DNA of 64,000 nucleotides from an uncultured Bacteroidota bacterium (GCA_947085565.1 CAMTWZ010000009.1:22040-86039), one strand, 5' to 3'. Positions 3,374 to 24,052 are shown, numbered from the stretch's first letter. Notes: generated by a model not told the origin, from the sequence alone. A program made the numbers and translations.

Positions 3374-3459
3374 GGGTCCGTAATCATACGTATTGACCTT
3401 CGTTTGATTTTTTCGCAACGTGTTGGCTTGCAATCACCTATCACTCAATCGGAGGTCTT

Positions 3460-3861
3460 ATGGAAAGCATCAACTATCTTGCTGTCTTAGTTTCAGCGGT
3501 CGCGGTATTCGGACTCGGTTCACTGTGGTACACCCCGATCCTGTTCGGGAATGTCTGGTTGAAGGAAGTGGGAATCACTCCGGATGAGGCCGAAAAAAGC
3601 AACATGGCGAAAACCTTCGGACTCGGATTCCTGTGCATCCTGCTCATGTGCCTGACCATGGCCATGTTCCTGCGCGATTCCGGTTACTCGGTCACGGAAG
3701 GCGCACGTTGGGGCACTTATGCCGGTTTCGGCTTGATGGGAGCCACAGTCGCACTTAACGCGGTTTATGAGAGCAAATCATTCTTGTATATCGCCATCAA
3801 CGCCGGGTACGTCACCATCGGAATGGCGATGGCCGGGGCGATACTGAGGGCGTGGGTTTAG
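3460..3861 (+). CDS. DUF1761 family membrane protein
   Basis: 133 aa with about 4 hydrophobic helices. The N-terminus INYLAVLVSAVAVFGLGSLWYTPILFGNVW resembles DUF1761. A GGAGG lies 5 nt upstream of the ATG. Confidence 0.6.
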   Translation: MESINYLAVLVSAVAVFGLGSLWYTPILFGNVWLKEVGITPDEAEKSNMAKTFGLGFLCILLMCLTMAMFLRDSGYSVTEGARWGTYAGFGLMGATVALNAVYESKSFLYIAINAGYVTIGMAMAGAILRAWV

Positions 3862-3899
3862 GAATTAACCTTGTTTCTTAACAGGGCAAATGCAGTTCT

Positions 3900-3991
3900 A
3901 ACAGGGAGCAACGGAGAAAGGGAGTTTTTTTCGGCGGGTACTGGCCAAGGCCTCCAAGAAACAATACTCCTTTTCTCCGTTGCTCCCTGTT
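3900..3991. repeat. palindromic intergenic element, copy A (25-bp stem, 42-nt loop)
   Basis: Left arm aacagggagcaacggagaaagggag (3900-3924). Right arm ctccttttctccgttgctccctgtt (3967-3991). They are complementary except for one G.T pair. It lies between the convergent DUF1761 gene and serS. A second copy is at 7776-7869. Confidence 0.85.
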
Positions 3992-4012
3992 AATTTTCTT
4001 ACTCCCTGTAAA

Positions 4013-5275
4013 TCACAGATACTCAGCCCCTAAGTACCCCTTCAGAACCTCAGGCACAAGGATGCGTCCGCTGGGCTCCTGGTACGTTTCCAGAATGGCC
4101 GACATCACGCGCGGTAGCGCGAGTCCGGAACCGTTCAAGGTGTGAACCAGTTGCGGCTTACCGTTCTCATCACGGTATCGGATCTTCATCCGCCGTGCCT
4201 GAAACGCTTCGAAATTGGAGCAGGAACTCACTTCCAACCAGCGTTTCTGTCCCGGGCTCCACACCTCGAGATCATACTTTTTCGTCTGTGTGAATCCCAT
4301 GTCGCCGGTGCACATGAACAGGGTGCGGTAATGCAAGCCGAGCGATTCCAACAATCCTTCCGCATCGCGGCGCAGCGATTCAAGCTCGTCATAACTCGTA
4401 TCCGGGTGAACGAGCTTCACCAATTCCACTTTGTCGAATTGGTGCAAGCGGTTCAAGCCGCGCACATCCTTGCCATAACTTCCCGCTTCACGACGCCAGC
4501 AGGGCGTGTAGGCGCAGTATTTCACGGGCAAAGAGCCTAAAATCTCATCGCGATGGAAGTTCGTGACCGGCACTTCCGCGGTCGGAATGGCGAAGAAGCC
4601 GTCACGGGGGACCGTGTACATCTGGTCTTCTTTATCGGGAATTTGTCCGGTGCCGCGCGCCGAATCCTCGTTCACGAAATACGGCGCCTGCAACTCCTGG
4701 TAGCCGTTTTTTGCGCCCTGATCCAGGAAATAATTGATGAGCGCACGTTGCAGCCGCGCGGCCGGACCCACATAAAAGGGAAAGCCGGCGCCCGTCACTT
4801 TCACGCCACGTTCGAAATCGATCCAGCCTAATTCCGACACCACATCCCAGTGCGGTTTGCGCCAGTTGTCGGTCAGCGCCTCGCCCCAAATGTGGACGGT
4901 CACATTATCATCGGGTGTGGACCCGACCGGAACCGATGTATGCGGGATGTTCGGAATGCGAAGCAACAGCTCGTTGCGCTCGAGTTCGGTGGCATCCACA
5001 GCCGCATCCAGCTCTTTGATCTTGTCTTTGGCGGCGGCGGTTTCGGCGATGATAACCTGCGCTTCTTCTTTTTTGCCCTGCGACATGAGCTGGCCAACGG
5101 ACTTCGCCCGGGCGTTGCTCTCATTGCGAAGCTGATCGGCATCGCTTTTCAGCTTGCGCCAGGTTTCGTCGATACCGAGCACCTGATCCACGATCGCGGT
5201 CTCTTTTTCGCCTTTGTTCAGCATGCCTTGCTTAACCAAGGCGGTATTCTCACGGATGAAATGGATGTCGAGCAT
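4013..5275 (-). CDS. serS: seryl-tRNA synthetase
   Basis: 420 aa. N-terminal coiled-coil arm ([14 protein letters not shown]) and a class II core (FRREAGSYGKDVRGLNRLHQFDKVE, TLNGSGLALPR). Confidence 0.95.
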   Translation of the reverse strand: MLDIHFIRENTALVKQGMLNKGEKETAIVDQVLGIDETWRKLKSDADQLRNESNARAKSVGQLMSQGKKEEAQVIIAETAAAKDKIKELDAAVDATELERNELLLRIPNIPHTSVPVGSTPDDNVTVHIWGEALTDNWRKPHWDVVSELGWIDFERGVKVTGAGFPFYVGPAARLQRALINYFLDQGAKNGYQELQAPYFVNEDSARGTGQIPDKEDQMYTVPRDGFFAIPTAEVPVTNFHRDEILGSLPVKYCAYTPCWRREAGSYGKDVRGLNRLHQFDKVELVKLVHPDTSYDELESLRRDAEGLLESLGLHYRTLFMCTGDMGFTQTKKYDLEVWSPGQKRWLEVSSCSNFEAFQARRMKIRYRDENGKPQLVHTLNGSGLALPRVMSAILETYQEPSGRILVPEVLKGYLGAEYL

Positions 5276-7710
5276 TAGTTGACTACGATATTGATGATGC
5301 GTTTGGGCACGAAAATCTCTTTGACGATAGTGCCGGTCTCCAGATAGCGTCGCGCGCCGGGCTCGGCCTTGGCCAGCTCCATCACGAAGGCTTTGTCTTC
5401 GGCTCTATCGGCCGGTACAGTGAGTTCGGCTCTGACCTTACCGTTGATTTGCACCGCATAGGTGAACGTGTCTGACACGAGGAACGACGCGTCCCAACTC
5501 GGCCATGCATGGTAGGCGAGTGTATCGGAATGGCCGAGGCGATGCCACAGTTCCTCCGCCATATGCGGGGCGAACGGACTCAGCAACAGCACGAAGGTCT
5601 CCATCATGCTGCGTGGACGCACATCCCACTTCATCGCCTCATTATTGAAAATCATGAGTTGGGAGATGGCGGTGTTGTACCGGCCGTTCTCGATATCCTC
5701 GGTCACTTTTTTGATGGTTTCATGAAGCACCTTGAGTTGATCGCGGGTAGGTTCGATATCCCTCAACTCATCCGCCAAACGGTCTTCGAATTCGTGATGG
5801 AATACGCGCCAGGTGCGTTTCAAGAAGCGGAATACGCCCTCCACCCCGTTCATGCTCCATGGCTTGACCTGCTCCAACGGACCCATGAACATCTCATACA
5901 AACGCAACGAATCGGCGCCGTACTGCTTCACCACATCGTCCGGATTGATGACGTTGCCGCGCGACTTGGACATCTTCTGATTGTCCTCACCAAGAATCAT
6001 CCCTTGGTTCACGAGCTTCTGGAAGGGCTCCTTGGTGCTCACCACGCCGATGTCGTACAGCACTTTGTGCCAAAAACGGGCATACAAGAGGTGAAGCACT
6101 GCGTGCTCGGCACCTCCGACATACATATCGACCGGCATCCAGAACTTCTCGCGGGCCGGGTCGACCGGACCCAGTTCGTAATCCGGGCTGATGTACCGCA
6201 GATAATACCAGCACGAGCCGGCCCATTGCGGCATCGTGTTCGTTTCGCGGAGCGCGGGTTTTCCTGTTTTCGGATCGGTCGTGTTCACCCAATCGGTGAT
6301 GACGGCCAAAGGCGAATCGCCGGTTCCGCTCGGCTCATATTTCTCTACCTCGGGTAACAGCAGAGGAAGCTCGGACTCATCCAAGGGCTGCACCACCCCG
6401 TCCACATGCAGTAGAGGAATGGGCTCGCCCCAGTAACGCTGGCGAGAGAACAGCCAATCGCGCAGCTTGTAATTGACGGTTCCGTTGCCCTTGCCTTGCT
6501 CTTCTAGCCAGGAAATCATCGCCGTCTTAGCCTCTTTCACACTCATTCCGTTCAGGAATCCGGAATTCACGGCCACTCCTTTTTCGGAATCGGTGAACGC
6601 TTCCTTCTGGACATCTCCGCCGGAGACGACTTCCACAATCGGAAGTCCGAATTGCTTGGCGAATTCCCAGTCGCGCACGTCGTGACCCGGAACCGACATG
6701 ATCGCGCCGGTTCCATAAGAAATCAGCACATAATCAGCGATCCAGACCGGGACTTCCTCCCCGTTCGCCGGATTGATCGCATAACCGCCAGTAAAAACAC
6801 CGGTTTTTTCTTTCACATCTCCGGTGCGATCCAGATCCGATTTGCGCGCGGCTTCATCGACATAGGCATCCACCGCGGCTTTCTGTGCCGGAGTGGTGAT
6901 GAGATTCACGAGCGGATGTTCCGGCGCCAGAACCATGTAGGTGGCACCGAACAGAGTATCTGGACGTGTGGAAAACACCGTGACCGACGCATCCACCCCT
7001 TTGAGCTGAAACACGATGTCGGCACCGATCGACTTCCCGATCCAATTTCGCTGCATCTCTTTGACGGATTCGGGCCAGTCCAATCCGTCCAAATCTTCCA
7101 ATAAGCGCTCTGCGAAAAGCGTAATACGCAGCATCCATTGGCGCATCGGGCGGCGGATCACCGGGAATCCGCCTACTTCCGACTTCCCGTCGATCACTTC
7201 CTCGTTGGCCAGAACGGTTCCCAATTCAGGGCACCAGTTCACCGCCACATGCGATTCGTACGCCAAACCTTGTTTGTAAAGCTGAAGGAAGATCCACTGA
7301 GTCCAGCGGAAATACGCCGGATCGGTGGTGTCGACTTCCCGATCCCAATCGTAACTGAAACCGAGCATCTGCAACTGCTCGCGGAAGGTCTTGATGTTGG
7401 CTTGCGTGGTCGCGGCCGGATGGGTTCCGGTTTTGACGGCATGCTGCTCGGCAGGAAGTCCGAATGCGTCCCACCCGATCGGATGCAACACGTTGAAACC
7501 CTTCATGCGCTTGTACCGGGCTACGATATCAGTCGCGGTGTAGCCTTCGGGGTGACCCACATGCAAACCCGATCCGCTCGGATACGGAAACATGTCCAAC
7601 ACGTAGAATTTAGGACGTGACGTGTCGGTGTCGTTGGTTTTGAAAATCTTGTTCGAAACCCAGAAGTTCTGCCACTTGGGCTCGATCTGGGACGGTTTGT
7701 AATCGCTCAT
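5275..7710 (-). CDS. leuS: leucyl-tRNA synthetase
   Basis: Class I motifs HVGHPEGY (HIGH) and KMSKSRGN (KMSKS), plus a CP1 editing domain. The track start at 7749 is a GTG. The ATG at 7710 ([14 protein letters not shown]) fits LeuRS N-termini. The stop overlaps the serS ATG by 1 nt. Confidence 0.95.
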
Positions 7711-12350: not shown

Positions 12351-13376
12351 ATGAAAAACATCTGGATCATTGCAGGGATCCTGGCCGTCTCCGCTTGCGG
12401 TGGCGACACCCGTCCCACACTGAGTTTCTACAACTGGGGATATTACATCGCCGACACCACCATCCCCGATTTCGAGTCCGAATTCGGCGTGAAGGTGATT
12501 TACGACAACTTTTCGAGCAACGACGAGCTTTACGCCAAACTGCGGACCGGCGCCAGCGGGTACGATGTGACCATGCCCAGCGATTACATGGTCGAAATCA
12601 TGACCAAGCAAGGCATGTTGGAGGAATTGGATTTTGCGAACATCCCGAACATCGAAAACATCGACCCACGCTTCAGAAATCTGCCGTTCGATCCCGAAGG
12701 CCGCTATTCCATCCCTTATCAATGGGGAACCACGGGAATCGGAGTGAACACGAAATACATCAAAGAGAACATCGACAGTTGGACAGCGCTCTGGGATCCC
12801 AAGTACAAAGGGCGTATCAGCGTGATCGACAACATGCGCAGCGGCTTGGTGCCGGCCTTACGCCTTCTCGGACACTCCGTGAATGAAACCGATCCAAAGA
12901 AACTGGAAGCCGCTCGCGACATGATGATCGCACAGAAAGAATTCGTACGCACCTACTCCAGCGACACCTATATCGACCTGCTCAAATCGGGAGATGTCTG
13001 GTTGGCGATGGGATGGAGCGGCGACATCTACCAAGTCATGAAAGAGAATCCGGATGTGATTTTCATCATCCCGAAAGAAGGAAGTTACGTCTGGGTCGAC
13101 AACCTTGTGATTCCCAAGGGATCAAAAAACAAAGATTTGGCCGAATCTTTTCTGAATTATCTGTTGCGTCCGCAAGTAGGAGCCGATATCTCCAATTACA
13201 CAGGCTATTCCACCCCGAACATGGCCTCCCATCCTCTCGTGCTCGATTCGCTACGCAACGATACGTCGCTGTACCCGCCTCAGAGCGTCCTTGATCGACT
13301 CGAATTCCTCAAAGACGTCGGTAGTGAAGCCACCGCGGTGTACAGCCGCATCTGGAACGAAATCAAATCGAAATGA
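12351..13376 (+). CDS. potD: spermidine/putrescine-binding periplasmic lipoprotein
   Basis: Lipobox (ILAVSAC) and a PotD/PotF-type SBP pattern (LSFYNWGYYI, YDVTMPSDYMV, IPYQWGTTGI). Confidence 0.85.
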   Translation: MKNIWIIAGILAVSACGGDTRPTLSFYNWGYYIADTTIPDFESEFGVKVIYDNFSSNDELYAKLRTGASGYDVTMPSDYMVEIMTKQGMLEELDFANIPNIENIDPRFRNLPFDPEGRYSIPYQWGTTGIGVNTKYIKENIDSWTALWDPKYKGRISVIDNMRSGLVPALRLLGHSVNETDPKKLEAARDMMIAQKEFVRTYSSDTYIDLLKSGDVWLAMGWSGDIYQVMKENPDVIFIIPKEGSYVWVDNLVIPKGSKNKDLAESFLNYLLRPQVGADISNYTGYSTPNMASHPLVLDSLRNDTSLYPPQSVLDRLEFLKDVGSEATAVYSRIWNEIKSK

Positions 13377-14008
13377 GCGAACCTCTCATGAACACCCTTT
13401 CCGAGCCGTGCGACGCGGTATGGCGCGACCGCGGTTCCAAATTCCTCGCCTATGCGAGGCGGGTGGGTCAGGAGACGGAAATCGCTGCGTTCGCCAAAGA
13501 GATTCGATTGCGGTGGCCCGATGCCACGCATCATTGCCTTGGCGCGCGATGGAATCCCGACAGCATCATGGAAATAGGTCAGGACGATGGAGAGCCATCG
13601 GGTACCGCAGGCTTACCCATCCTGAACCAACTGCGTTCCCGAAAACTGGTGAACGTGGCCTGCATCGTGGTCAGATATTTCGGTGGCACGAAACTCGGGA
13701 AGCCAGGCCTAATCCAAGCCTATGGCACCGCGGCCGCCGCATGCCTGGATGAGGCTTCGCTGCTGCCGATCGAAAAGAAGAATCTGTTCAGGATTACCAC
13801 CTCCTTCACCGAAATCAAATGGATCGAGTATCAGGTGAGGAAATCCGGTGCAAAAATCCTATCCACATCGTTCACAGACATCATCCGGTATGAATTGGGT
13901 GTTCCCGACGGCTCCACCGCCGAATTCCTGTCACAAATGCAGATCCACGGCATGCAGCGCGTGAAAATCGAACCCCTCGGCACCACCTGGGATCATAAAA
14001 GCGCTTAA
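13373..14008 (+). CDS. yigZ: YigZ/IMPACT family protein
   Basis: RGSKFLAY, ATHHCLGARW and DDGEPSGTAGLPIL are the UPF0029/IMPACT signature. ATGA overlap with potD. Confidence 0.85.
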   Translation: MSEPLMNTLSEPCDAVWRDRGSKFLAYARRVGQETEIAAFAKEIRLRWPDATHHCLGARWNPDSIMEIGQDDGEPSGTAGLPILNQLRSRKLVNVACIVVRYFGGTKLGKPGLIQAYGTAAAACLDEASLLPIEKKNLFRITTSFTEIKWIEYQVRKSGAKILSTSFTDIIRYELGVPDGSTAEFLSQMQIHGMQRVKIEPLGTTWDHKSA

Positions 14009-14580
14009 CTGGACGATTTTTTCTTGTAACAGGAATGGAGTTTGGCCAATAAGCGGCTTTTTCTGACCCGCACCAAAACCGGACTGATCTTGAACAGCTT
14101 GCTCACAGTCAGATACGACGCTTCGGGTTCATCCATATAGAATTGGATGAATGCGCGATTGGGTTCATCCAGAAGTTCCATGCATTTGCGGAGGATATCC
14201 TCCCTCTCCTGATCCACCAGTCTCTTGTATTGCTCGGCGGGATCCGTCATGTATTGCTCTTCCAGGACCATTCCCCCCTCCCGCATCTCTTTCTTCACCG
14301 TCTTGAAGAATTCATTGCGCGCGGAAATCATCAGATAGCCAATCACGTTCACAGACGTATCGTAATGGCCTGACTTCACCCTGTCGATCATCGAAAAAAG
14401 CGCCTGCTGGGCGCATTCTTCAGCGAGATAGGCGTTGGAACGTACGGTGATGCTCAGATACTCCCTGATCTGAGGTAAGATGATCCGCGTAAACGCATCC
14501 ATCACAGGATGATCATCCTGCACAATGGCTTGGAGAATCTCTTCCGACGAAAATTGAGGGGCACTTGGTTTCGTTGACAC
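14005..14580 (-). CDS. RNA polymerase sigma factor, ECF-like (sigma-70 family)
   Basis: 191 aa. The N-terminus SSEEILQAIVQDDHPVMDAFTRII follows the usual ECF pattern. Region-2-like YLMISARNEFFKTVKK and region-4 HTH-like SYLTVSKLFKISPVLVRVRKSRLLAKL. GTG start. The stop overlaps the yigZ stop (convergent). Confidence 0.6.
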   Translation of the reverse strand: MSTKPSAPQFSSEEILQAIVQDDHPVMDAFTRIILPQIREYLSITVRSNAYLAEECAQQALFSMIDRVKSGHYDTSVNVIGYLMISARNEFFKTVKKEMREGGMVLEEQYMTDPAEQYKRLVDQEREDILRKCMELLDEPNRAFIQFYMDEPEASYLTVSKLFKISPVLVRVRKSRLLAKLHSCYKKKSSS

Positions 14581-14714
14581 GGGTCAAGTTACAAAATGCG
14601 AAGTGAAGCGCCACGCCATTTCAAAAGGATTTTTTTTGAAAATATTTTTTTAATTAGAGCTTCTTAATTATACTAAGTCATTAAAAATCAATGACTAAAA
14701 ATTTTTATTAGAGT

Positions 14715-14745
14715 GCTGTAACATTTGGCACCTCTCGGAATCATA
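14715..14745 (+). promoter_or_regulatory. promoter-like motif GCTGTAACA-N10-CTC-N-G-N-ATCATA upstream of the lipoprotein/CHAT unit
   Basis: GCTGTAACATTTGGCACCTCTCGGAATCATA. 21 of 31 positions are identical to the minus-strand motif at 19730-19760 upstream of the receiver gene. Confidence 0.4.
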
Positions 14746-14868
14746 TATATGAATAGATAAATGATCATAATCGGATAGAGTGGACATTCACTTTAAACTT
14801 AGTGAGTTTATCTTAATGGACTTATGCCTTATATCAACAAAACCATCATACCCAAGATACATAATACC

Positions 14869-15102
14869 ATGAATACGAAATCCACCCTCTTCGCTGTAGC
14901 CGCTGCCGCTATCCTCTTGACTGGCTGCGCCAACTCCACTGACGCCCTCCGCAATGTTGGCGGTCACAGGGAAGGCATCATCGTCAACAAACCCCCAACC
15001 CGCGCGCCAAGCACCAATGCGGATGCCACCGACCGCGATACAGACGCGATCTTCAACGTCGGCGGGCATAAAGAAGGTATTATCGTCAACAAGCCGGAAT
15101 AA
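14869..15102 (+). CDS. small lipoprotein made of two 19-aa repeats (NVGGHxEGIIVNKP core)
   Basis: Signal plus lipobox MNTKSTLFAVAAAAILLTGC. Repeats DALRNVGGHREGIIVNKPP (14941-14997) and DAIFNVGGHKEGIIVNKPE (15043-15099) differ mostly at synonymous sites. The track start at 14824 adds 15 aa before the signal peptide. Confidence 0.65.
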   Translation: MNTKSTLFAVAAAAILLTGCANSTDALRNVGGHREGIIVNKPPTRAPSTNADATDRDTDAIFNVGGHKEGIIVNKPE

Positions 15103-15156
15103 TCTTCGAGATCGCCGTGCTGTGGGTATATTAGCGACCGAACGCTACCCACAGAC

Positions 15157-18100
15157 ATGCTTCGAAACGTATTCATAGTGATGTTGATTTTCGTCTCTGA
15201 GGTTGCTTTTGGGCAACCTCAGAGATTCATTCAGCAGCAACAAGCCGATCAGCTCCTCCAGAGGATTGTTCAGCGCGAGTATGTGGCTATGCATGTTTGG
15301 GGTTTGTCTCAACTCACAGCCCAAGACACAGAGTTGCACAAGTATGTGCGAACCAGGGCGGGCACGTTCCAACCCAGGACATCCGCTGTTGATTGTTATC
15401 TGAACGCCATCACAGCCGTCGGTCATTCCGCCGTGATGAAAGCCGCATGGGACTGCGAGCGGCTACCCGATCTGGGCGTCCTGTATCTGTACAGTTTGGA
15501 ACCGACCGAGAGGGCTGCCGCCTACCGATCGAACCTGACCCATTTCCGCTATTCCTCTTCCGATCCCGTGATAGATGCATATCTGAAAAGGGCGTTGAAT
15601 CCGGATGCGGATGTGGCTGGCATTGCAGGAAAACGCGCTTTCCGAGCCGCAGACGTGCTATTGATTCCGCCAGGTTACGGGTATTCGGACGGGAATGCGG
15701 TTCATTACCTGTCGCTTCTCGACCATTGGTCTATTGGGCTTCAACCCACACGCAGAAGTCTCTCATTCGCAGACACCTATCAAGTCTTTCTGCTGATCGA
15801 CTCCTACCATGTTCGAAGCCAATACGAAAGGGTCTATCCGTTCATGGAGACGATTTCGGGGTCAAGTATTTTCCCGGATATCGATATCAAGCTCCGCACG
15901 TACCGGCGGCTGGCGTTCGCCGCATACTATCTGGCGTATTACCAATCGGCATTGGATTTCTACAGACGCGATTTGCTGCCTACTGTCAGAAGGATGTCCG
16001 ATGGAAATCCCAATTATGTCGAAGCGCGACTTCGAGTTGAAACCGATTTTGGGAGCATTCTTTTCCTTCTTGGGGATATTCAGAGTGCTAGAGACATCTA
16101 TGCGAAGATTTTTCATCGCCGAGCGGAGCTGACCGATCTTCGCGCCCGATCCACGCTTCTCAACAACCTCGCCGTCGCTTATTTGAACACTGGGATGGTG
16201 GGCGATTATCTATCGCTGCAGTTTCAAGCCTTGTCGGATGCGCGACTTTCCAGAGACAATCAAAACCAACTGCAGATTCTGAATAATCTGTACGTGTTCC
16301 ATTGGCGTCGGGGCGATTGGGAAAACGGAATCCGATACTTGAACAAGGCTTACGAAGTCGCACTTGAGTCGAATGCGAAAGAGGAATTAGGCAACATCCT
16401 GTCGTTGTATGGCACCTATCATCGTGAATTTCTAAAAAACCCTGCGAAAGCCCTCGAGTTCAACGACCGAGCCATCAGCCTCTTGCAGAGCACGGGGTCG
16501 AAAATCACGCTTCGGCTTGTTCAATTCGAAAAAGCACTCACTTTGGAGAGCTTGGGAAGATATGATGACGCGATTGCCTTGTACACTGAGATCGAGTCGG
16601 ATGCGGCACTGCGGAATGATCTAGTTTCAGCTACGGTGACACGTATTCAACGCATCCATCTGTTGCAGACATTGGGACGTCACGGGCAAACCAGCGAGTT
16701 GGTCACCTCTCTGAAAAACAAGGACCTACGCAACACCCTTGATTTCGAGAAATTCATTGAGGCCGTGAATGTGGTTGCGACTGACGACATCCACCAAAAC
16801 CAACCACGCAAAGCATTGGCGCTTCTCGAACCTGTGGTGACGGAGATTTTCACACGTATCGAGAACAGTGCGGATTCCCAGACCGGTTTCATCCGCTTCA
16901 AACCGGAATTCGCTGTTTCCATCCGGATCCTTGTGGATTTGCACCTTTCGTTGAATCAGCTCGAAAAGGCCGCTGAATTGCTTGATGCGGTAAAGACCGT
17001 GAATCAATCTTCCCTGAACAACAGCAATCTCATAAGATCATCCCTGTTCAGCGAATCTGAGCGTCTGGAAGATTTCAAATTGATGCAAGACATCGAGCAG
17101 ACACGCGGAAAGTTGATGGATGCCAGCGAAACCCAGAAACTGGAATTGAACAACCGACTGCTGCAGTTGCAGCGCAAGCGACTTCCAGGTATCAACTTCA
17201 AAGACCGCTCCATCCATGAAGCGCAGCAGTTCTTGGGCAAAGGACATGCGATTGTTTCCATCACTGTTGTAGACCACAAGGTCTATCGCACAACGGTGAC
17301 CAGAACATCGATCCGAGTCAACGCCTTGGCTGGAAGCAAAGGTATGTTGGAAGAATGGTCGCAGATCGGGACCAAGCTGCAATCCGGAACCACTCCGCTC
17401 AATGATCTGCACAAATTGTATCAGCGGTTGCTGGGTGATGTCATGAAATCGAAACCCAGTCATCTGATTTTCATTCCAGACGGTCCGCTTCATCGAATTC
17501 CGGTGGAAATCCTACCCACCACTGCGCCCGCTTCCGAGACATCCTTCGGCAGCGTTCGATTTTTGATTGAGGACCTGCCTGTCACCTATTCCACATCCAT
17601 CAGAGAGCACCATTCCACTGACCGTACGCGCCCGGATTACACCTCCGATTTTCTCGGGGTGGGAATCTCCCGGTTGCGTTCTTTCCCGTTGATGAATCCC
17701 CTTCCGTTCGCCGAGCAGGAAGTGAACCGGATCAGCAACACACTGTCCAAATTGGGCAATCAACGCATCCTAACGGGTGCGGAGGCAACGGAAGCGGCCA
17801 TCCGACAAAATGCGGCGGGAAGCAGGATTTTGCACATCGCTTCCCACAGCGAAGTGAACATGTCCGACCCGCTGTTTTCAGTGATTTATCTGGAAGCAAA
17901 TGAAACCGACGATGGAGCCTTGTATGCCTATGAACTCTTCGGCATGAATCTGGACATGGAGCTCATCATGTTGAGCAGTTGCGAATCGGGCAGCGGCAGC
18001 TTCATCCAAGGAAGCGGCATGGTGGGTTTGGGCCGTGCGTTGCGATCTGCGGGAGCGCGAAGCCTGGTGATGAACATGTGGTCGATCCAGGACCAGACCG

Positions 18101-18351
18101 CCGCAGACATTTCCACTTGGTTTTATGAACATCTGAATCAGGGGTTCGCCAAAGACGAGGCCTTGCGCGCTGCGAAAATCCGATATCTGACCACTCGGAG
18201 CAGCAATCCCCATGTTTGGGGGTCATTCATTCTGATCGGTGAAAACGACCCTCTTATAAATAAAATCAGCATCAGGGATCTCTTCGTCGGGGGTATCCTG
18301 ATGCTGATTTTGGGTGGGGCCCTGTTGCTTGTTTTTTATCGACGGAGCTGA
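15157..18351 (+). CDS. exported TPR-repeat CHAT-domain (caspase-fold) protein with a C-terminal membrane anchor
   Basis: 1064 aa. Signal-like MLRNVFIVMLIFVSEVAFGQ. TPR-like helical repeats at roughly aa 300-560. The CHAT region starts about LIFIPDGPLHRIPVEIL (nt 17461) and has His in ILHIASHSEV (17845-17847) and Cys in IMLSSCESGSG (17980-17982). Terminal helix LFVGGILMLILGGALLLVFYRRS. Confidence 0.8.
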   Translation: MLRNVFIVMLIFVSEVAFGQPQRFIQQQQADQLLQRIVQREYVAMHVWGLSQLTAQDTELHKYVRTRAGTFQPRTSAVDCYLNAITAVGHSAVMKAAWDCERLPDLGVLYLYSLEPTERAAAYRSNLTHFRYSSSDPVIDAYLKRALNPDADVAGIAGKRAFRAADVLLIPPGYGYSDGNAVHYLSLLDHWSIGLQPTRRSLSFADTYQVFLLIDSYHVRSQYERVYPFMETISGSSIFPDIDIKLRTYRRLAFAAYYLAYYQSALDFYRRDLLPTVRRMSDGNPNYVEARLRVETDFGSILFLLGDIQSARDIYAKIFHRRAELTDLRARSTLLNNLAVAYLNTGMVGDYLSLQFQALSDARLSRDNQNQLQILNNLYVFHWRRGDWENGIRYLNKAYEVALESNAKEELGNILSLYGTYHREFLKNPAKALEFNDRAISLLQSTGSKITLRLVQFEKALTLESLGRYDDAIALYTEIESDAALRNDLVSATVTRIQRIHLLQTLGRHGQTSELVTSLKNKDLRNTLDFEKFIEAVNVVATDDIHQNQPRKALALLEPVVTEIFTRIENSADSQTGFIRFKPEFAVSIRILVDLHLSLNQLEKAAELLDAVKTVNQSSLNNSNLIRSSLFSESERLEDFKLMQDIEQTRGKLMDASETQKLELNNRLLQLQRKRLPGINFKDRSIHEAQQFLGKGHAIVSITVVDHKVYRTTVTRTSIRVNALAGSKGMLEEWSQIGTKLQSGTTPLNDLHKLYQRLLGDVMKSKPSHLIFIPDGPLHRIPVEILPTTAPASETSFGSVRFLIEDLPVTYSTSIREHHSTDRTRPDYTSDFLGVGISRLRSFPLMNPLPFAEQEVNRISNTLSKLGNQRILTGAEATEAAIRQNAAGSRILHIASHSEVNMSDPLFSVIYLEANETDDGALYAYELFGMNLDMELIMLSSCESGSGSFIQGSGMVGLGRALRSAGARSLVMNMWSIQDQTAADISTWFYEHLNQGFAKDEALRAAKIRYLTTRSSNPHVWGSFILIGENDPLINKISIRDLFVGGILMLILGGALLLVFYRRS

Positions 18352-19064
18352 TCTTTGGCGTTGATCGCAGCTCGCTTGAATTCGCCATCCATCTGTATGA
18401 CCTGATCCAGATACAGATCGGCTTCTTTGAGTCTGTTTTGGTGAATCAGGGCATTGGCCGCATACCAAGTCGATTTTTCACGGATGGATGGATCAGTGCC
18501 TGGCGTATCGATGATGACGGCGAACAACGCGATCGCATCAGCGTAGTTTTTTGAATTGTAATTCAACGCCGCCAGACTCAGCTGGGTTCGGGAACGTTGA
18601 TCGAGGGTCAATTCCGATTCCAACAACGAATTGAGCCTGGACTCCGCCGAGGCCGTGTTTCCATCCAAGGCAAGTACGGTGACATCCCTCAAGGAGGCTT
18701 CGAACTCGTCTGAACTGACTTCCGCCGACCGCATCAAGCTGTATTCGACAGTGGCCAACGGGCGGAATTCAGCGGCGGAATCCGATCCGGTGAGGAAATA
18801 CATCGATGTTCCGACCCCGATGATCACCGCCGCAGCCGCTGCAGTCGCAGCCATTCTGATGCGTTCTCGGTTCATCAACGGAATCGGGGTCACATTCCGC
18901 CCCACGGAGAGTTTCCTCAAGGTGGCTGCGGTTTTCATGTAATCGAGATAGTCGTGCTGGATGACATCCACCCATAGGTGGTCTATCTGTTTCTGGGTCA
19001 GTACACCCTTCACATATAGATCAATCCTATCTTCCAGGTCAAGGAGTTTGGATCGGGTTTTCAC
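18336..19064 (-). CDS. single-pass membrane protein, putative anti-sigma factor with a TPR-like outer domain
   Basis: 242 aa, GTG start. The N-terminal roughly 75 aa are cytoplasmic and follow the usual anti-sigma pattern (IDLYVKGVLTQKQIDHLWVDVIQHDYLDYMK). One TM segment (MAATAAAAAVIIGVGTSMYFL). The C-terminal helical repeats look like TPR (YADAIALFAVII, WYAANALIHQNRLKEADLYLDQVI). No family signature recognised. Confidence 0.45.
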   Translation of the reverse strand: MKTRSKLLDLEDRIDLYVKGVLTQKQIDHLWVDVIQHDYLDYMKTAATLRKLSVGRNVTPIPLMNRERIRMAATAAAAAVIIGVGTSMYFLTGSDSAAEFRPLATVEYSLMRSAEVSSDEFEASLRDVTVLALDGNTASAESRLNSLLESELTLDQRSRTQLSLAALNYNSKNYADAIALFAVIIDTPGTDPSIREKSTWYAANALIHQNRLKEADLYLDQVIQMDGEFKRAAINAKDQLRR

Positions 19065-19125
19065 AAGGATTCTTCATGGTTTGATTCTCATAGTAAATCA
19101 AGGCTGTAACAAAAGACCGAGGAAC

Positions 19126-19710
19126 TCAGAACGTGGGTTGTTCGCCACGTTTCTGCATCACAAGACGGATGGTGTTCAGAAGGTCTTCTTTTTGAAACGG
19201 TTTGGGCAAAAACGCATCCATACCGGCTTCCAGGCAGTGCTCGCGGATATTGGTGGTGAGATTCGCAGTGACTGCGATGATGGGAACATCCTTGTATTGC
19301 TCGATCCGACGCAATTGGCGGGTGGTTTCAATGCCATCCATCCCTTCGCCCAGGTTCACATCCATGATGATGACATCATAGTGTTCGTCTTTGGCAAGCT
19401 GGAGAGCTTCGGCGCCGTTTTCCGCGGCGTCAACTTGAAATCGCTTCTTACGTAGGAAATACTTCACGATCGAACGGACTTCCGCGTTGTCTTCCACATG
19501 GAGAGTTCGCAGTGATACCGATTCGATGGTGTCTGTTGCCGTTTCAGACACGGCTTCAATCCTTTCCGACTGTTCATCCCAAACATACCTCCTGACCGAA
19601 TCCTTCGCACTGCGCTCAGTTAAGACAATGGATGGTACGAACATAAGTGTATCGGCAGAGGTCGTCTGCCTTAGGTTTGATTGGACGAAGTTGTGAAGTA
19701 CTCGAAACAT
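19126..19710 (-). CDS. stand-alone response-regulator receiver protein with a roughly 70-aa N-terminal extension
   Basis: REC motifs: LHVEDN, phospho-acceptor context DVIIMDVNLGEGMDG, IIAVTAN, KPF. No output domain. AAGGAGG lies 7 nt upstream of the ATG. Confidence 0.8.
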   Translation of the reverse strand: MFRVLHNFVQSNLRQTTSADTLMFVPSIVLTERSAKDSVRRYVWDEQSERIEAVSETATDTIESVSLRTLHVEDNAEVRSIVKYFLRKKRFQVDAAENGAEALQLAKDEHYDVIIMDVNLGEGMDGIETTRQLRRIEQYKDVPIIAVTANLTTNIREHCLEAGMDAFLPKPFQKEDLLNTIRLVMQKRGEQPTF

Positions 19711-19729
19711 GGATGTTCCTCCTTATCTC

Positions 19730-19760
19730 TATGATCCTGAGGAACCCGATTTGTTACAGC
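19730..19760 (-). promoter_or_regulatory. promoter-like motif, minus-strand copy, upstream of the receiver/anti-sigma-like unit
   Basis: The minus strand reads GCTGTAACAAATCGGGTTCCTCAGGATCATA, then GAGATAAGGAGGAACATCC ATG. It matches the motif at 14715-14745. Confidence 0.4.
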
Positions 19761-19832
19761 CACCAGAAGATTATTTTTTTCTTATGGTACCGATGGCTCA
19801 AATGTATCTAAATATGCACTTCTTAATGATTT

Positions 19833-19898
19833 AAGATTTTCTAACGCTTCCCCGTACTGCCCAACGATGTGCGAATACGGAGAATGTTAGAAAATCCT
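19833..19898 (-). terminator. inverted repeat downstream of the S9 peptidase gene (possible terminator or structured RNA)
   Basis: aagattttctaac (19833-19845) pairs with gttagaaaatcct (19886-19898), 12/13 complementary. There is an inner ccgta/tacgg pair. It starts 15 nt after the peptidase stop on the minus strand. No clear U-tract follows. Confidence 0.35.
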
Positions 19899-19912
19899 AA
19901 CCCTTTCTGGAG

Positions 19913-22615
19913 TCAATTTCCGGAGTAAGCCTCTCCTTTTCTGATCCATTCGGCGGCCGGAGCCCCTTTCAGATAGTGGTCGAAGTACTCTTTCATCCGG
20001 ATGGTGTAGTCCATTTTGTTCGCATAACGCTGAGGATGGTGAGGTTCGCCATGATATTGAAGGAAGATGACGTCCTTATTGAGCCGTCGCATCGCCAGGT
20101 ACAATTCGATGCCTTGATACCAGGGCACCGCGTCGTCTTCATCGCCGAACATGATCAGAGTCGGCGTTTTGATGCGGTCGGCGAAGAACACGGGTGAATT
20201 CTCGATGTACAGATCTCTGGCTTCCCACATCGTCTTCCCGATCCGGCTTTGTTGCTGTTCGTATTGGAACTGACGGGCCAGGCCTGTGCCCCAACGGATG
20301 CCGTTATAGGCGCTGGTCATGTTAGATACTGGAGCCCCGACGATTGCCGCCGCGAACAGATTCGTCTGCGTGATGATGTGAGCCGCTTGGTATCCGCTCC
20401 ATGAATGGCCGTGGATTCCGATCCGAGCCGGATCAGCGATCCCCAGATCGATCAGCTTCTGCACTCCGGGAACGATGTATTTGGTGGACGAATAACCCGG
20501 CTGACCCAAATCATACCTAACGTCCGGCAAGAATATGGCATATCCGTTGCTGGCGTAATATGGAAATGAGGGGCGATGATTCACCGCCAAAGCATTGTAT
20601 TCGTGCAATCGCTGGGAGAACAGCTCATAGAAATACACGATTACGGGTAGTTTGGTACCCGGTTTCCATCCACCCGGCGTGATCAGCACCCCTTGAACCG
20701 GAATTCCATCCATGCTCGACCATTCCACCAGTTGGGATTGTCCCCAAGCAAGCTCTTTCATGATCGGATTGACATCAGTGCGTTTCACTTTGGTCTTGAA
20801 CTTGGAATCGGAGCTCCATAAATCAGGAAACTCGTTGTAGGATTCGCGTGTGTACAGAACCACGTCCGCATTTTTGGCTTTGGCTATGAAGTTGAGTTTC
20901 TTGGATTCATCCAGAAGCAAGGTGAGGCTTGGACGTTCAAATCGAAGCTCATAAAACCCGGTGGTTTTTTTCAAGTCGTGATAACCGGTGAGCAACAAGG
21001 GTTGGCTCACGGAAATGGTGGGCTTGTCGGTGGTGATTCTCACACGGTATTGGAGTTTGTCTCTTCGGCCGGTCCGGGTGAGATTCGCCGATGTTCCCGA
21101 ACTCGGATCGAACGCCCAGATATCGAATTTGTCGTAAATGAGGACCCGGGCCTCATTGTCCAACCATCCTGCGATTCCATACCCTGAAGCGCTGCCAGGT
21201 GTGTCGTGGTCTTCGTTGGCGAAGGAAGTCGATATGGATTGCGTCAGATTGCGGCTCACACCGGTCGCGGAATTCGTGGCATGCCAATGTCCGTCGCGGA
21301 AATAGACCACCCAGACACCGGTTGGCGACAATTGCGCGGAACCGCTGTGACGTGTGAGTATTCTCCGGCGCGACCCGCTTTGCAGATCCACGACGGAAAT
21401 ATCGGATTGGTTACCGAACCACGAAATCTCCCGCTGATAATCGCTGTTGGATGTTCCAAGCGCGAAACGCGTGTTTTTAGGCACAGATACCGATGCCAAG
21501 CTCGAATCGGCCAAGGCTACCGTCCGATTTCCGGCCCTATGCCAAACGCTCATAAACGTCCGGTTTCTGCGTTGGGTAGCCGTTTTGATCTCATGAGGTT
21601 TGATGAGCGGATCTTCGCCATGCCACACATCCAGACCCCGATCGGCGCGGATGAATTCGGTGTCTGTGAAATTCGTCGTGCTCCATTCATCGCGCTTGGG
21701 TTTCATCACGGGTTTTTCCGCTTCCGGCTTCACTCCGAAAAAGAGAAGTTCGCCACGGTCCGACCAGCTCAAGGTGTTTCTGAACGGGACATATCGGCCC
21801 GAAAAAGCAGGTTCGATTTCACTCAGGGTGTTGGAAAAAACAAATAACTGGGATTCTTCCACTGCCTGATCCGCATCTTCCTGTGCGGAAAGAAACGCCA
21901 GACTGGAGGTCGATTCATTCCAAGTAAGCCTGTCGTATCGAGCGAACGGTGCGGCATGGAGGGTGTCGACGGTGCCATCCGCGATCTTGTAACGGATCAG
22001 TGCGTTGCCTTTTCCGGAACTGTCGGCGAGCGCCAGGAAGACGACGCTGCCGAGCGAATCGGCCTGAAATGCGGACACGAATGGAATCGTGCGGATGGAT
22101 TCCGAACCCAAACTGCGAATTTCGAGCGTGGAGCCGATAGTTTTGCGCCATCCGCTTCCCGCTTTGCCTGCATTGTACCAGACCAGGATATATTTTGAAT
22201 TCCCTGTGAACTGAAACGATTTCACATCCGCCAAGGTGGTCATCACTCCGGTGGATGTCGGGAAATACACCATTCCCGCTTTGGGGCGGTCGGCCGGTTT
22301 GGATGCGTTTTCCACGGCGATCACATCGGGTCGGACGGTGACTCCCGCAAAAGCCGCATCTGTTGAGAACACCGGTTTTTCACCGTTCGGGATGGTGTAT
22401 GAACGCCGGCCTGCGATTTCCTTGACCACAGCCTCTCCATTGCCGCGATCGGGCCAGGTATCGTATCCCATCCAAACCCCGTTGTCGGAAATCGACGCAT
22501 TGCGAAGGGTTCGCATCGACATCAGGTCGTTCAGGGTCATCGGTCGGTTTTGAGCGAAAGAGTGATCGGAGAACGCGAAAAGCGTGAGGACGAAGACGAA
22601 CAGGAATTTGCGCAT
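19913..22615 (-). CDS. S9 family serine peptidase (prolyl oligopeptidase/dipeptidyl aminopeptidase type) with an N-terminal beta-propeller
   Basis: C-terminal alpha/beta hydrolase with nucleophile elbow GIHGHSWSGYQ, then FGDEDDAV and GEPHH. Signal peptide MRKFLFVFVLTLFAFSDHSFAQ from the ATG at 22615. The track start at 22684 is a TTG. Confidence 0.85.
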   Translation of the reverse strand: MRKFLFVFVLTLFAFSDHSFAQNRPMTLNDLMSMRTLRNASISDNGVWMGYDTWPDRGNGEAVVKEIAGRRSYTIPNGEKPVFSTDAAFAGVTVRPDVIAVENASKPADRPKAGMVYFPTSTGVMTTLADVKSFQFTGNSKYILVWYNAGKAGSGWRKTIGSTLEIRSLGSESIRTIPFVSAFQADSLGSVVFLALADSSGKGNALIRYKIADGTVDTLHAAPFARYDRLTWNESTSSLAFLSAQEDADQAVEESQLFVFSNTLSEIEPAFSGRYVPFRNTLSWSDRGELLFFGVKPEAEKPVMKPKRDEWSTTNFTDTEFIRADRGLDVWHGEDPLIKPHEIKTATQRRNRTFMSVWHRAGNRTVALADSSLASVSVPKNTRFALGTSNSDYQREISWFGNQSDISVVDLQSGSRRRILTRHSGSAQLSPTGVWVVYFRDGHWHATNSATGVSRNLTQSISTSFANEDHDTPGSASGYGIAGWLDNEARVLIYDKFDIWAFDPSSGTSANLTRTGRRDKLQYRVRITTDKPTISVSQPLLLTGYHDLKKTTGFYELRFERPSLTLLLDESKKLNFIAKAKNADVVLYTRESYNEFPDLWSSDSKFKTKVKRTDVNPIMKELAWGQSQLVEWSSMDGIPVQGVLITPGGWKPGTKLPVIVYFYELFSQRLHEYNALAVNHRPSFPYYASNGYAIFLPDVRYDLGQPGYSSTKYIVPGVQKLIDLGIADPARIGIHGHSWSGYQAAHIITQTNLFAAAIVGAPVSNMTSAYNGIRWGTGLARQFQYEQQQSRIGKTMWEARDLYIENSPVFFADRIKTPTLIMFGDEDDAVPWYQGIELYLAMRRLNKDVIFLQYHGEPHHPQRYANKMDYTIRMKEYFDHYLKGAPAAEWIRKGEAYSGN

Positions 22616-22708
22616 GGAGACCGTGGGTTGGTGAACGTTGAAAATCGAAAACCTACGCTTGGTATGCAATTTTCGTAACTTCAATTAACAAGAACAGCCG
22701 GGACCGAT

Positions 22709-24052
22709 TTGAAAGTGATCATTATCGGGGCGGGCGAGGTCGGGTACGACCTCGGATCCATGCTCTCGCAGGAAAAACACGATGTCGTCATTCTCGATCG
22801 AGACAAAGAGGCGCTTCGCATCTGTGGTGAAAGCGATGTGATGACCATCGAGGGTAATGCGACATCGGCTCAGGATTTGCAACGTGCCGGTGTGGCGGAT
22901 GCCGATCTGGTGGTCGCGGCCACGAACTTGGACGAAGTGAACATGGTCGCGGCATTGCTCAGCAAGCGTCTGGGTGCGGCCAAAGTGATCGCCCGCATCC
23001 GCAATGACGAGTTTTCAAGACCGAACGCTCTGGTGCGCCCGGCCGATATGGGCATCGATGTGATGATCCATCCCGAACAGAGCGTGGCGCGCGAAATCGT
23101 TCTTTTGGTGAAGCGTGCCGCCGCATCGGATGTGGTGAGTCTGGCGGAAGGAAAAATGCAATTGGTGGGCATCCGATTGGACAAAGCCTCCCCAATCGTC
23201 GGCAAGAAACTGATCGAAGTGGCTCCTCTGGCTCCTGAGACTCCGTTCCGTGTGGTAGCCATCTACCGTGGCGGCTTCACCCTCATTCCGTTCGGAAACG
23301 ACCGCCTGCAAGCCAATGACCATATTTTCGTGCTGGCCAGAACCGAGGATGTCAGCGCGATGTTGAGCATCACGGGACATGAGAACCGCAAGATCCGCAA
23401 CATCATGATCACCGGCGGAACCACGGTCGGCGCCATGATCGCCCGGATGCTCAGTCAGGACGAAACCGACTGGAAGATAAAGCTCATCGAACCTGACTAT
23501 GAGACATCCTATGAGTTGGCCACGGAATTGAGGGATGTGTTGGTGCTGCATGGCAATCCCACCGATCCGAACCTGTTGGTGACCGAGGGTATCACCGAAA
23601 CCGATGTGTTCATCGCCGTCACGGAAGACGAAGAGTCGAACATCATTTCCTGCCTGATGGCCAAGCACCTGAAAGTGCCGAAAGTGATCGCGATGGTGTC
23701 GAAACCCGATTACATTCCGTTGAGTCAGACCATAGGCCTGGATGCGGCGGTGAATAAGAAACTGGCCGCATCGAACGAAATCCATCGGCTGGTACGAAAA
23801 GGATCCGTACTCTCGGTGGCCGCGTTGCATGGTATCAAAGCCGAAGTCTTGGAATTCGAAGCCCAGCCCACCTCCAAAATCACCGGACATACCATCGCGA
23901 AACTCGTGTTTCCGAAGGGATGTGTGGTCGGTGGTGTGATTCGAGGCGGAAAAGCGGAAGTCGCCACCGGAAACACCGTGGTCGTGGCCGGCGATCGGGT
24001 GATCGTGTTCTGTCTGCCTGAGTCTATCGATAAAATCTCATCCTATTTCTGA
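22709..24052 (+). CDS. trkA: Trk potassium uptake system NAD-binding subunit
   Basis: Two Rossmann-type TrkA_N modules (IIIGAGEVG, IMITGGTTVG), each followed by an RCK_C-like domain. TTG start. Confidence 0.9.
   Translation: MKVIIIGAGEVGYDLGSMLSQEKHDVVILDRDKEALRICGESDVMTIEGNATSAQDLQRAGVADADLVVAATNLDEVNMVAALLSKRLGAAKVIARIRNDEFSRPNALVRPADMGIDVMIHPEQSVAREIVLLVKRAAASDVVSLAEGKMQLVGIRLDKASPIVGKKLIEVAPLAPETPFRVVAIYRGGFTLIPFGNDRLQANDHIFVLARTEDVSAMLSITGHENRKIRNIMITGGTTVGAMIARMLSQDETDWKIKLIEPDYETSYELATELRDVLVLHGNPTDPNLLVTEGITETDVFIAVTEDEESNIISCLMAKHLKVPKVIAMVSKPDYIPLSQTIGLDAAVNKKLAASNEIHRLVRKGSVLSVAALHGIKAEVLEFEAQPTSKITGHTIAKLVFPKGCVVGGVIRGGKAEVATGNTVVVAGDRVIVFCLPESIDKISSYF

Follow-up and report, generated by a model that had tools for sequence, protein, structure and literature searches.

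Described couplings of TPR-CHAT proteins to ECF sigma factors

Two characterized systems connect a protein composed of tetratricopeptide repeats (TPR) and a CHAT domain to a sigma factor of the extracytoplasmic function (ECF) type. In Myxococcus xanthus, DdvA carries on a single chain a zinc-binding three-helix cytoplasmic anti-sigma domain, which a transmembrane (TM) helix and a flexible linker join to a periplasmic TPR-CHAT part; its authors propose, without demonstration, that the linker is cut by CHAT in trans within a dimer, thereby licensing RseP (PMC11506125). For DdvA, the sole periplasmic CHAT protein studied in this respect, neither a signal nor any cleavage event has been demonstrated, and relatives were found in Myxococcota and one Comamonas only (PMC11506125). 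In type III-E CRISPR systems, the TPR-CHAT protein Csx29 cleaves a separate protein, Csx30, an inhibitor of the ECF-type CASP-sigma/RpoE (PMC10028731). Given these precedents, DdvA/DdvS and Craspase, coupling of TPR-CHAT proteins to ECF sigma factors can be considered established, and our full-text literature searches on periplasmic TPR-CHAT proteins yielded the DdvA/DdvS study alone. Here, we describe a five-gene cluster in a 64,000-nt stretch of DNA from an uncultured Bacteroidota bacterium (GCA_947085565.1, CAMTWZ010000009.1:22040-86039; hereafter, the window), which encodes an ECF-type sigma factor, a small lipoprotein, a TPR-CHAT protein, a 242-aa anti-sigma-like membrane protein and a response regulator receiver. 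The cluster very probably represents one conserved envelope signalling unit built around the sigma factor, the membrane protein paired with it and a CHAT protease located in the periplasm. A preliminary description of the window, which knew of no characterized system with such a composition, missed DdvA (PMC11506125) and the Craspase-Csx30-CASP-sigma system (PMC10028731), both of which couple TPR-CHAT to an ECF sigma factor. The combination of a split, C-terminally anchored periplasmic protease with a TM-TPR partner, a motif-bearing lipoprotein and a receiver, found here in Balneolales, is an architecture undescribed so far.

A five-gene unit conserved between the pot and trk genes

Open reading frame (ORF) calling in the window recovered the five ORFs at the positions given in the preliminary description (Table 1). 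Their order and orientation, namely, sigma (-), lipoprotein (+), CHAT (+), anti-sigma-like (-) and receiver (-), are constant in all sufficiently flanked Balneolales-type loci, both the complete ones with all five genes (L001, L004-L009, L011, L013 and L031) and the partial ones that agree with this order (L012, L014, L015 and L018), and are retained even at 33% CHAT identity; the co-occurrence in related genomes on which the description depended is thus borne out. By contrast, the flanks differ between loci and include potABCD, yigZ, HiPIP, cupredoxin and MacB-type genes as well as an S9 peptidase gene. Because the neighbours vary while the five genes stay together, the latter constitute a conserved functional unit, a conclusion supported across these loci. 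The CHAT family is well delimited, with full-length orthologues at 33-100% identity, and its species-genome sources are solely metagenome-assembled genomes (MAGs) labelled Balneolales, Balneolaceae, Balneolia, Cyclonatronaceae, Bacteroidetes, Rhodothermaceae or 'uncultured Chitinophagales'. Two distant CHAT homologues, P0017 and P0032 (~70% coverage), have no sigma, anti-sigma or receiver neighbours and were set aside as belonging to other contexts; a third sigma subfamily (P0265), represented on one short contig, showed no comparable neighbourhood.

The position of the block between the pot and trk genes is itself widely conserved across the order, which favours vertical inheritance over a mobile island. 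Tblastn searches against 72,556 plasmids returned CHAT-domain matches only, none to the full-length CHAT protein, and no match was obtained among 50,697 phage records. The impression in the preliminary description that the block and its upstream spacer are more AT-rich than the surrounding genes is borne out in part only: the GC troughs lie mainly in two spacers (30% and 40%), the coding regions of the cluster are 2-5 GC points lower than pot and trk (49-53%, with the lipoprotein gene at 57%, vs 52-56%), and GC content at third codon positions is 57-67% vs 67-75%. A shift this small is no sign of an island. Horizontal acquisition as an island is rejected in view of the synteny, the lack of full-length plasmid or phage matches and a GC content that is merely mildly lower. 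The suggestion that the genes form a conflict module finds no support given the core-genome synteny, the absence of the block from phages and plasmids, the lack of defence genes adjoining it and the marginal nature of the PADLOC matches (BovA at 5.5e-4 on the CHAT core, and receiver-domain noise); no cas genes were present in any locus examined.

The gene adjoining the receiver gene in the window (19913-22684, -) encodes a peptidase of the S9 family (prolyl oligopeptidase-type; 923 aa), the N-terminus of which is signal-like. It also is found in L004, L006-L010 and L031, but not in L001 and L005, and is therefore a frequent neighbour rather than a core member of the unit.

A predicted periplasmic TPR-CHAT protease

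From the window sequence, the preliminary description had proposed an ECF-like sigma factor with region-2- and region-4-like segments, a TPR-CHAT protein with a putative catalytic His and Cys, a signal-like start and a terminal hydrophobic helix, a repeat lipoprotein, an anti-sigma-like protein, a receiver and a promoter-like motif common to both outward-facing units; these assignments hold up in the analyses below, with the anti-sigma-like protein remaining a candidate. The TPR-CHAT protein was recognized in profile searches by both the CHAT (PF12770, E=1.7e-52) and TPR_12 (6.6e-13) families. His897 and Cys942 are invariant in 14 full-length orthologues and, in a phmmer alignment, coincide with the cHgE and gaCEt segments of chain 8d9h_E (Sb TPR-CHAT), at an offset of 45 in both cases. 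These positions correspond to H585 and C627, the catalytic dyad of Sb TPR-CHAT (PMC9729208). The predicted protease thus has an intact dyad. In the AlphaFold2 (AF2) model (mean pLDDT 81), N-terminal helices are followed by a long TPR superhelix, the CHAT domain and a terminal helix, with the two dyad residues lying where strands 889-895 and 936-939 end. Foldseek searches of this model against the Protein Data Bank (PDB) retrieved Csx29/Craspase (1.6e-13 to 1e-11), human and yeast separase (~1e-10) and DdvA (8rw5 and 8rot; 4e-10 to 7e-10), the latter over 1031-1036 columns, the longest alignment among the bacterial TPR-CHAT matches. Judging from the model, the fold class, a TPR-CHAT of the separase/Craspase/DdvA type, is secure; a specific kinship to DdvA is not, because profile searches miss DdvA/DdvS by sequence.

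Only two hydrophobic segments are found in the CHAT protein, one at each end (Table 1), and both the signal-like start and the C-terminal helix are kept in all orthologues, even at 31-33% identity. The TM segment of the 242-aa protein is flanked by an Arg-rich RERIRM on the N-terminal side and by an acidic stretch on the C-terminal side, and neither the sigma factor nor the receiver contains a hydrophobic segment. According to the positive-inside rule, basic residues flank the cytoplasmic side of membrane segments; the basic flanks therefore place the bulk of the CHAT protein and the TPR domain of the 242-aa protein in the periplasm. The signal-like N-terminus, the C-terminal TM segment with its basic end and a Cys80/Cys100 pair that is invariant among the orthologues all fit a periplasmic CHAT protein. 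According to these sequence features, the protein is predicted to be exported and anchored in the membrane, at the outer face of the inner membrane.

The sigma factor and its putative anti-sigma partner

The sigma protein consists of sigma2 and sigma4 domains only. It narrowly passes the cutoff of TIGR02937 (sigma70-ECF; 43.3 vs 42.9 bits), and the individual Pfam models of regions 2 and 4 remain below their cutoffs, Sigma70_r2 reaching no better than E=0.012 for the window protein and being weakly matched by nine of 10 sigma orthologues. The assignment is firmer than these values indicate because a profile built from the 10 orthologues retrieves solved ECF sigma factors, including 5uxx (2.9e-6), presumably an EcfG-type sigma factor, Rhodobacter sphaeroides RpoE (2q1z, 5.8e-6), SigK and SigW. 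Cys133 and Cys184 are invariant in 39 diverse family members and Cys56 in a closer set, a trait uncommon among ECF sigma factors.

The predicted structure (AF2) of the 242-aa protein is consistent with the classical layout of a membrane-bound anti-sigma factor. Three helices (residues 3-18, 24-36 and 40-53; pLDDT 58-74) precede a TM helix modelled at residues 69-92, a linker of low confidence (93-119) and a helical domain (120-241) with pLDDT >90. The best structural matches of the latter are peptide-binding three-TPR modules, namely, IpgC/SycD, Sti1, YbgF, BamD and LapB. An exhaustive profile search delineated the family to which the protein belongs, a word-indexed search having suggested a far smaller one: 158 clusters match at E<=1e-30, end to end, nearly all of them 235-295 aa in length, and one member, P0285 (31% identity), lies in a five-gene cluster of this kind, with the same flanking genes. 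Four residues are invariant in 51 sampled members, L22 and W31 in the N-terminal domain, R112, and N170 in the TPR domain. R112 is located in the disordered juxtamembrane linker, which is variable apart from this residue, as expected for a processing or docking site, and Arg112-Ser113 is the best candidate for a cleavage site. As the N-terminal domain is devoid of a Cys/His zinc motif, a metal or redox site, if the pair has one, would have to lie on the sigma factor.

The strongest support for the pairing of the two proteins comes from a sister arrangement. In L027, L028 and L029, originating from Balneola vulgaris (GCA_000375465.1, L028), a Balneola sp. MAG and one further contig, the gene of a 181-aa sigma homologue (E=3e-18) immediately precedes, in the same orientation, that of a 264-269-aa homologue of the anti-sigma-like protein, and a gene for a TPR-CHAT protein with a signal peptide lies 2.5 kb from the pair (Table 1). 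Judging from this adjacency, together with the architecture, the 242-aa protein would bind the sigma factor, and the anti-sigma-like label is retained on the same grounds. Balneolaceae with the sister arrangement are cultured and would provide an experimentally accessible host.

Candidate ECF-type promoters of the two regulator units

Two matches to the motif GCTGTAACA-N13-RGRATCATA lie in the window, one at 14715-14745 (+), upstream of the lipoprotein-CHAT unit, and the other at 19730-19760 (-), upstream of the receiver/anti-sigma-like unit, whereas none of 100 shuffled sequences contained two. An AAGGAGG follows the candidate promoter of the receiver/anti-sigma-like unit. Across loci, TGTAAC precedes the first lipoprotein gene at a distance of 96-202 nt and the receiver gene at 47-99 nt; each holds for 13 of 13 loci, against a background expectation of 0.037 per 220 nt. 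At a fixed distance of 16-17 nt, it is followed by ATCAT, ACTCAT, CTCTT/CTCTA or CTTTG. A TGTAAC-type -35 element with an AAC core and a short -10 element are the signature of ECF promoters, as in the consensus sequences of Bacillus subtilis sigmaX/W/M and Escherichia coli sigmaE. The sharing of a conserved ECF-type promoter by both regulator units is therefore supported, and the cognate sigma factor would be the one encoded in the block. The sigma gene itself is preceded by a TGTAAC-type motif in none of the loci. Since the motif marks the other two units rather than the sigma gene, the local regulon would comprise the presumed regulators of the sigma factor.

The lipoprotein and the receiver

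A 64-79-aa protein with a lipobox is encoded just upstream of CHAT in every five-gene locus. By pattern matching, the lipobox reads LLTG followed by C20 in the window protein and ..LGC, ..TGC, ..VGC or ..AGC in the orthologues. The repeat to which the protein owed its initial name is present in two units in the window, the second of which forms the C-terminus, and corresponds to the part that is conserved across loci: the C-terminal motif of the orthologues, G-x-[KR]-[EP]-[DGN]-[IV]-[IVD]-[IV]..[KRI]-P-[DE], is located at the very end or one residue short of it. The motif occurs twice within one lipoprotein in the window and its closer relatives, and as a single unit in L001, L004, L013 and L031. 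Tandem lipoprotein genes with one motif each are found in L011 (2531-3018), L014 (3344-3845) and L018 (3150-3637); tandem genes and internal repeats are thus two routes to one double dose. The motif peptide is not encoded elsewhere in the window or near the Balneola-type loci. Most likely, the lipoprotein would be a ligand of one of the TPR domains, acting either as a tether or as a securin-like inhibitor that sets CHAT activity, with its C-terminal peptide GGHKEGIIVNKPE being the candidate ligand.

The receiver (Response_reg, PF00072, E=1.3e-29) is an orphan, single-domain protein, no kinase gene having been found in any locus. Residues E73, D74, D117 (19360-19362), T148 and K170 are invariant in 10 orthologues, and the N-terminal extension of ~70 aa is poorly conserved, with short motifs only. 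In the unit that it shares with the anti-sigma-like gene, the receiver gene always comes first. In L009 (7905-8258), the receiver is shortened to ~117 aa through loss of an internal part of the receiver domain and the rest of the cluster is intact, which points either to at least one lineage that can do without the receiver or to an assembly error.

A small GC hairpin with a T-rich tail (19117-19129, -) follows the receiver stop codon, in the spacer to the anti-sigma-like gene (19065-19125). It may act as a weak terminator or attenuator and thereby adjust how much receiver is made relative to the anti-sigma-like protein. Read on the other strand, the tail gives TGTAACA (19106); the sequence is conserved in L006-L008.

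Comparison with known systems

DdvA/DdvS is matched in several respects. An ECF sigma factor would also here be controlled from the periplasm by a separase-type TPR-CHAT protein with a His-Cys dyad, the putative sigma-binding part would likewise be a small three-helix cytoplasmic domain attached to a single TM helix, the flexible juxtamembrane linker would be the cleavage site, as proposed for DdvA ahead of RseP, and the CHAT model aligns with 8rot/8rw5 over ~1030 columns (E ~5e-10). In contrast to DdvA, the parts are split over two polypeptides, one with helices, TM segment and small TPR domain, the other with signal peptide, TPR, CHAT and C-terminal anchor. The CHAT protein lacks an N-terminal anti-sigma domain, and the N-terminal domain of the anti-sigma-like protein lacks the CHCC zinc motif of DdvA. 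Furthermore, a conserved lipoprotein and a receiver are added, there is no adjacent defence island, and the host belongs to another phylum.

The likeness to Craspase lies in a TPR-CHAT protein that would act in trans on a separate inhibitor and free an ECF-type sigma factor; Csx29 also is the best structural match of our model (Foldseek, 1.6e-13), with an aligned catalytic dyad (PMC9729208). However, Craspase is cytoplasmic, RNA-guided and bound to Cas7-11, whereas the protein described here is predicted to be exported and anchored, lacks a CRISPR context and scores 13 bits against a cutoff of 300 with the NCBIfam model of Csx29 (NF041237). Separase shares the TPR-like superhelix and the CHAT/caspase fold (Foldseek ~1e-10), is restrained by a small pseudosubstrate inhibitor, securin, and cuts after Arg, and might therefore serve as a model for the lipoprotein and the invariant Arg112; its biological role and compartment are unrelated, and a securin-like role of the lipoprotein is speculation. 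Finally, in the DegS-RseA-RseP-sigmaE pathway of E. coli, the site-1 protease, membrane-anchored and facing the periplasm, attacks in trans an anti-sigma factor that spans the membrane once (PMC10028731). That protease is activated by C-terminal peptides of envelope proteins, and the cognate promoters carry an AAC -35 element. DegS, however, is a PDZ serine protease rather than a CHAT protein, the periplasmic domain of RseA differs from that of the 242-aa protein, and sigmaE autoregulates, unlike what the motif-less gene of the present sigma factor would suggest.

TPR-CHAT/ECF coupling is thereby extended to three architectures, a cytoplasmic RNA-guided, a fused periplasmic and, as proposed here, a split periplasmic one, and is carried into a third phylum. 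The analysis also defines a new lipoprotein motif that is conserved, as well as a large, barely annotated family of small proteins combining a TM helix with TPRs. Whether a periplasmic CHAT protein can be the site-1 protease of an anti-sigma factor is a question that can be addressed with this module: as the predicted protease and the protein that it would cut are encoded separately, cleavage is directly testable in vitro.

A proposed mechanism and its alternatives

By analogy, the five genes might encode a split, trans-acting counterpart of DdvA/DdvS to which a lipoprotein ligand and a phospho-input have been added. The three cytoplasmic helices of the membrane-spanning anti-sigma factor would hold the sigma factor, and its periplasmic TPR domain would be the sensor or docking part. 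A signal would alter contacts between the lipoprotein and the TPR, and the tethered TPR-CHAT protein, a separase-like cysteine protease, would act as a signal-dependent 'site-1' protease in trans, cutting the anti-sigma factor close to Arg112, within the disordered stretch that adjoins the membrane. The sigma factor would subsequently be freed by intramembrane proteolysis and would then transcribe the lipoprotein-CHAT and receiver/anti-sigma-like units; with both units on its promoter, protease and inhibitor would be renewed together. The receiver would supply a cytoplasmic phospho-input. The course from lipoprotein signal to sigma release is drawn from analogy and anatomy, which applies to sigma/anti-sigma binding, to all cleavage events, to what the lipoprotein and the receiver do and to the signal itself, and we consider the chance that the entire chain is correct to be about even. 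A more tentative variant, which we regard as possible rather than probable, is an envelope switch resembling separase and securin, in which the lipoprotein, through a repeated C-terminal pseudosubstrate or ligand peptide, restrains CHAT until envelope conditions perturb the lipoprotein and a cut after Arg112 starts the intramembrane proteolysis that releases sigma, with the receiver gating the process from the cytoplasm. If true, this would be the first trans-acting CHAT site-1 protease and offer a tractable test of the unproven DdvA hypothesis.

Several observations weigh against this mechanism. The N-terminal helices that would bind sigma were modelled with moderate confidence. Pfam and NCBIfam searches with the 242-aa protein yielded weak TPR matches only, without any anti-sigma family; zf-HC2 was matched (E=0.025) solely by the N-terminal fragment of a single distant homologue, and a profile of the N-terminal domain hit PDB sequences at chance level, with no solved anti-sigma factor among them. 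Neither the CHAT nor the sigma profile retrieved a DdvA/DdvS chain from the PDB sequences at E<=1. Placing the cut at Arg112 is a guess. The sigma gene lacks the motif and hence classic autoregulation, which is common among ECF sigma factors, albeit not universal. In the Balneola-type loci, the CHAT protein has no C-terminal TM segment, no receiver or motif lipoprotein is encoded nearby, and TGTAAC precedes CHAT in one of the three loci; this occurrence, in L027, was not counted as evidence because it is not shared with L028 and L029.

Furthermore, the CHAT protein and the lipoprotein could equally be outputs of the system. The sigma/anti-sigma pair would then sense an envelope cue via the small TPR domain and induce a periplasmic CHAT protein, which targets other envelope proteins, along with its lipoprotein partner, be it a substrate, an inhibitor or an immunity factor. 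The ECF-type promoter in front of the lipoprotein-CHAT unit agrees with such a scheme, as do the general tendency of ECF regulons to encode envelope enzymes and the two unrelated genes that part CHAT from the sigma/anti-sigma operon in Balneola-type loci. We nevertheless deem this main rival less likely than the proposed mechanism, because CHAT is linked to the sigma/anti-sigma pair in both arrangements throughout the order, the disordered anti-sigma linker contains an invariant Arg, as would a processing site, and the protease is upstream of sigma in both known TPR-CHAT/ECF couplings. Alternatively, the lipoprotein might be the substrate, cleaved by CHAT at or beside the GGH[KR]E[DG]IIV.KP[DE] unit so that a peptide is released or the tether lost, and the anti-sigma TPR domain would read the product, in the way that DegS responds to the C-terminal peptides that outer membrane proteins (OMPs) expose. 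The co-transcription of lipoprotein and CHAT genes in all five-gene loci, the strict conservation of a C-terminal motif duplicated either internally or through gene duplication and the resemblance of the anti-sigma TPR domain to peptide-binding TPRs, including binders of C-terminal peptides, speak for this route; it appears unlikely given that Balneola-type loci keep CHAT, sigma and anti-sigma without a nearby lipoprotein and that some lineages have a single motif copy.

Control could also reside entirely in the cytoplasm, with the receiver, phosphorylated by an unlinked kinase, switching partners on the sigma factor or on the helices of the 242-aa protein, much as in PhyR-NepR-EcfG, and CHAT having a separate role in the envelope. 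The invariance of all phospho-acceptor residues, the constant leading position of the receiver gene in the anti-sigma-like unit and the best solved match of the sigma profile, 5uxx, presumably of EcfG type, are compatible with this idea. But a sigma-like domain is missing from the receiver, the extension at its N-terminus is short and little conserved, the Balneola-type loci lack a receiver gene and the shortened gene of L009 sits in an otherwise intact cluster, making such control quite improbable. Least credence is due to an anti-phage or conflict system, in which the periplasmic CHAT protein would sense a phage protein and induce distant defence genes. Although both characterized TPR-CHAT/ECF couplings serve defence, the constant core-genome position between pot and trk across the order, the neighbourhood devoid of defence genes, the marginal PADLOC matches and the lack of full-length copies on plasmids or phages render this function very improbable.

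Gene layout and minor features

The coordinates of the genes and their features are compiled in Table 1. The mechanically called lipoprotein ORF (14824-15102, +) opens earlier than the ATG at 14869; the latter was taken as the start because all orthologues begin with MKTKS or MNTKS at this position.

Table 1. Genes and features of the five-gene cluster. Positions refer to the window, except for the last row, which is numbered along L028.
Feature	Position (nt)	Strand	Residues	Remarks
Sigma gene	14005-14580	-	191 aa	ECF-type, divergent
Candidate ECF-type promoter, lipoprotein-CHAT unit	14717-14745	+		TGTAACA-N16-ATCATA, 152 nt 5' of ATG 14869
Small lipoprotein gene	14869-15102	+	77 aa	
Lipoprotein repeat copies	14938-14994, 15040-15099	+	24-42, 58-77	19-20-aa unit TDA[LI]xNVGGH[RK]EGIIVNKP
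TPR-CHAT gene	15157-18351	+	1064 aa	
CHAT protein, signal-like segment	15157-15213	+	1-19	MLRNVFIVMLIFVSEVAFG, then QPQ
CHAT protein, helical N-domain				with invariant C80/C100
CHAT protein, TPR superhelix			~245-620	
CHAT domain	17239-18246	+	~695-1030	
CHAT, predicted catalytic His	17845-17847	+	897	
CHAT, predicted catalytic Cys	17980-17982	+	942	
CHAT protein, C-terminal TM	18280-18336	+	1042-1060	then YRRS
Anti-sigma-like gene	18336-19064	-	242 aa	
Anti-sigma-like protein, predicted periplasmic three-TPR-like domain	18342-18707	-	120-241	
Anti-sigma-like protein, predicted disordered periplasmic linker	18729-18731 (R112)	-		P102; invariant R112
Anti-sigma-like protein, TM	18792-18848	-	73-91	hydrophobicity
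Anti-sigma-like protein, three predicted cytoplasmic N-terminal helices	18906-19058	-	3-53	
Receiver gene	19126-19710	-	194 aa	
Candidate ECF-type promoter, receiver/anti-sigma-like unit	19730-19758	-		TGTAACA-N16-ATCATA, 48 nt 5' of ATG 19710
Balneola-type locus	L028 3544-10443			order FtsY, TPR-CHAT (~973 aa), M28 peptidase, ScpA, sigma, TM-TPR protein, PPK

An Rfam scan of 13000-23000 gave no match, and a scan for sigma-70 promoters and terminators revealed no excess over shuffled sequences. Apart from the spacers of the cluster, the second-lowest GC content of the window (44%) is found at positions 1-600. The 16-nt tail-to-tail overlap between the CHAT and anti-sigma-like genes, noted earlier, was confirmed at 18336-18351; it is frequent among the loci, albeit not universal. 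In L011, an ORF for an XRE-type helix-turn-helix (HTH) protein (6720-6959) is located between these two convergent genes, and in L015, they are separated by ~950 nt (3319-4272) in which we identified no convincing ORF. At the other end of the block, a yigZ/IMPACT-family gene (13373-14008, +) overlaps the sigma gene (14005-14580, -) tail to tail by 4 nt, so that convergent gene ends overlap on either side of the plus-strand unit of the block.

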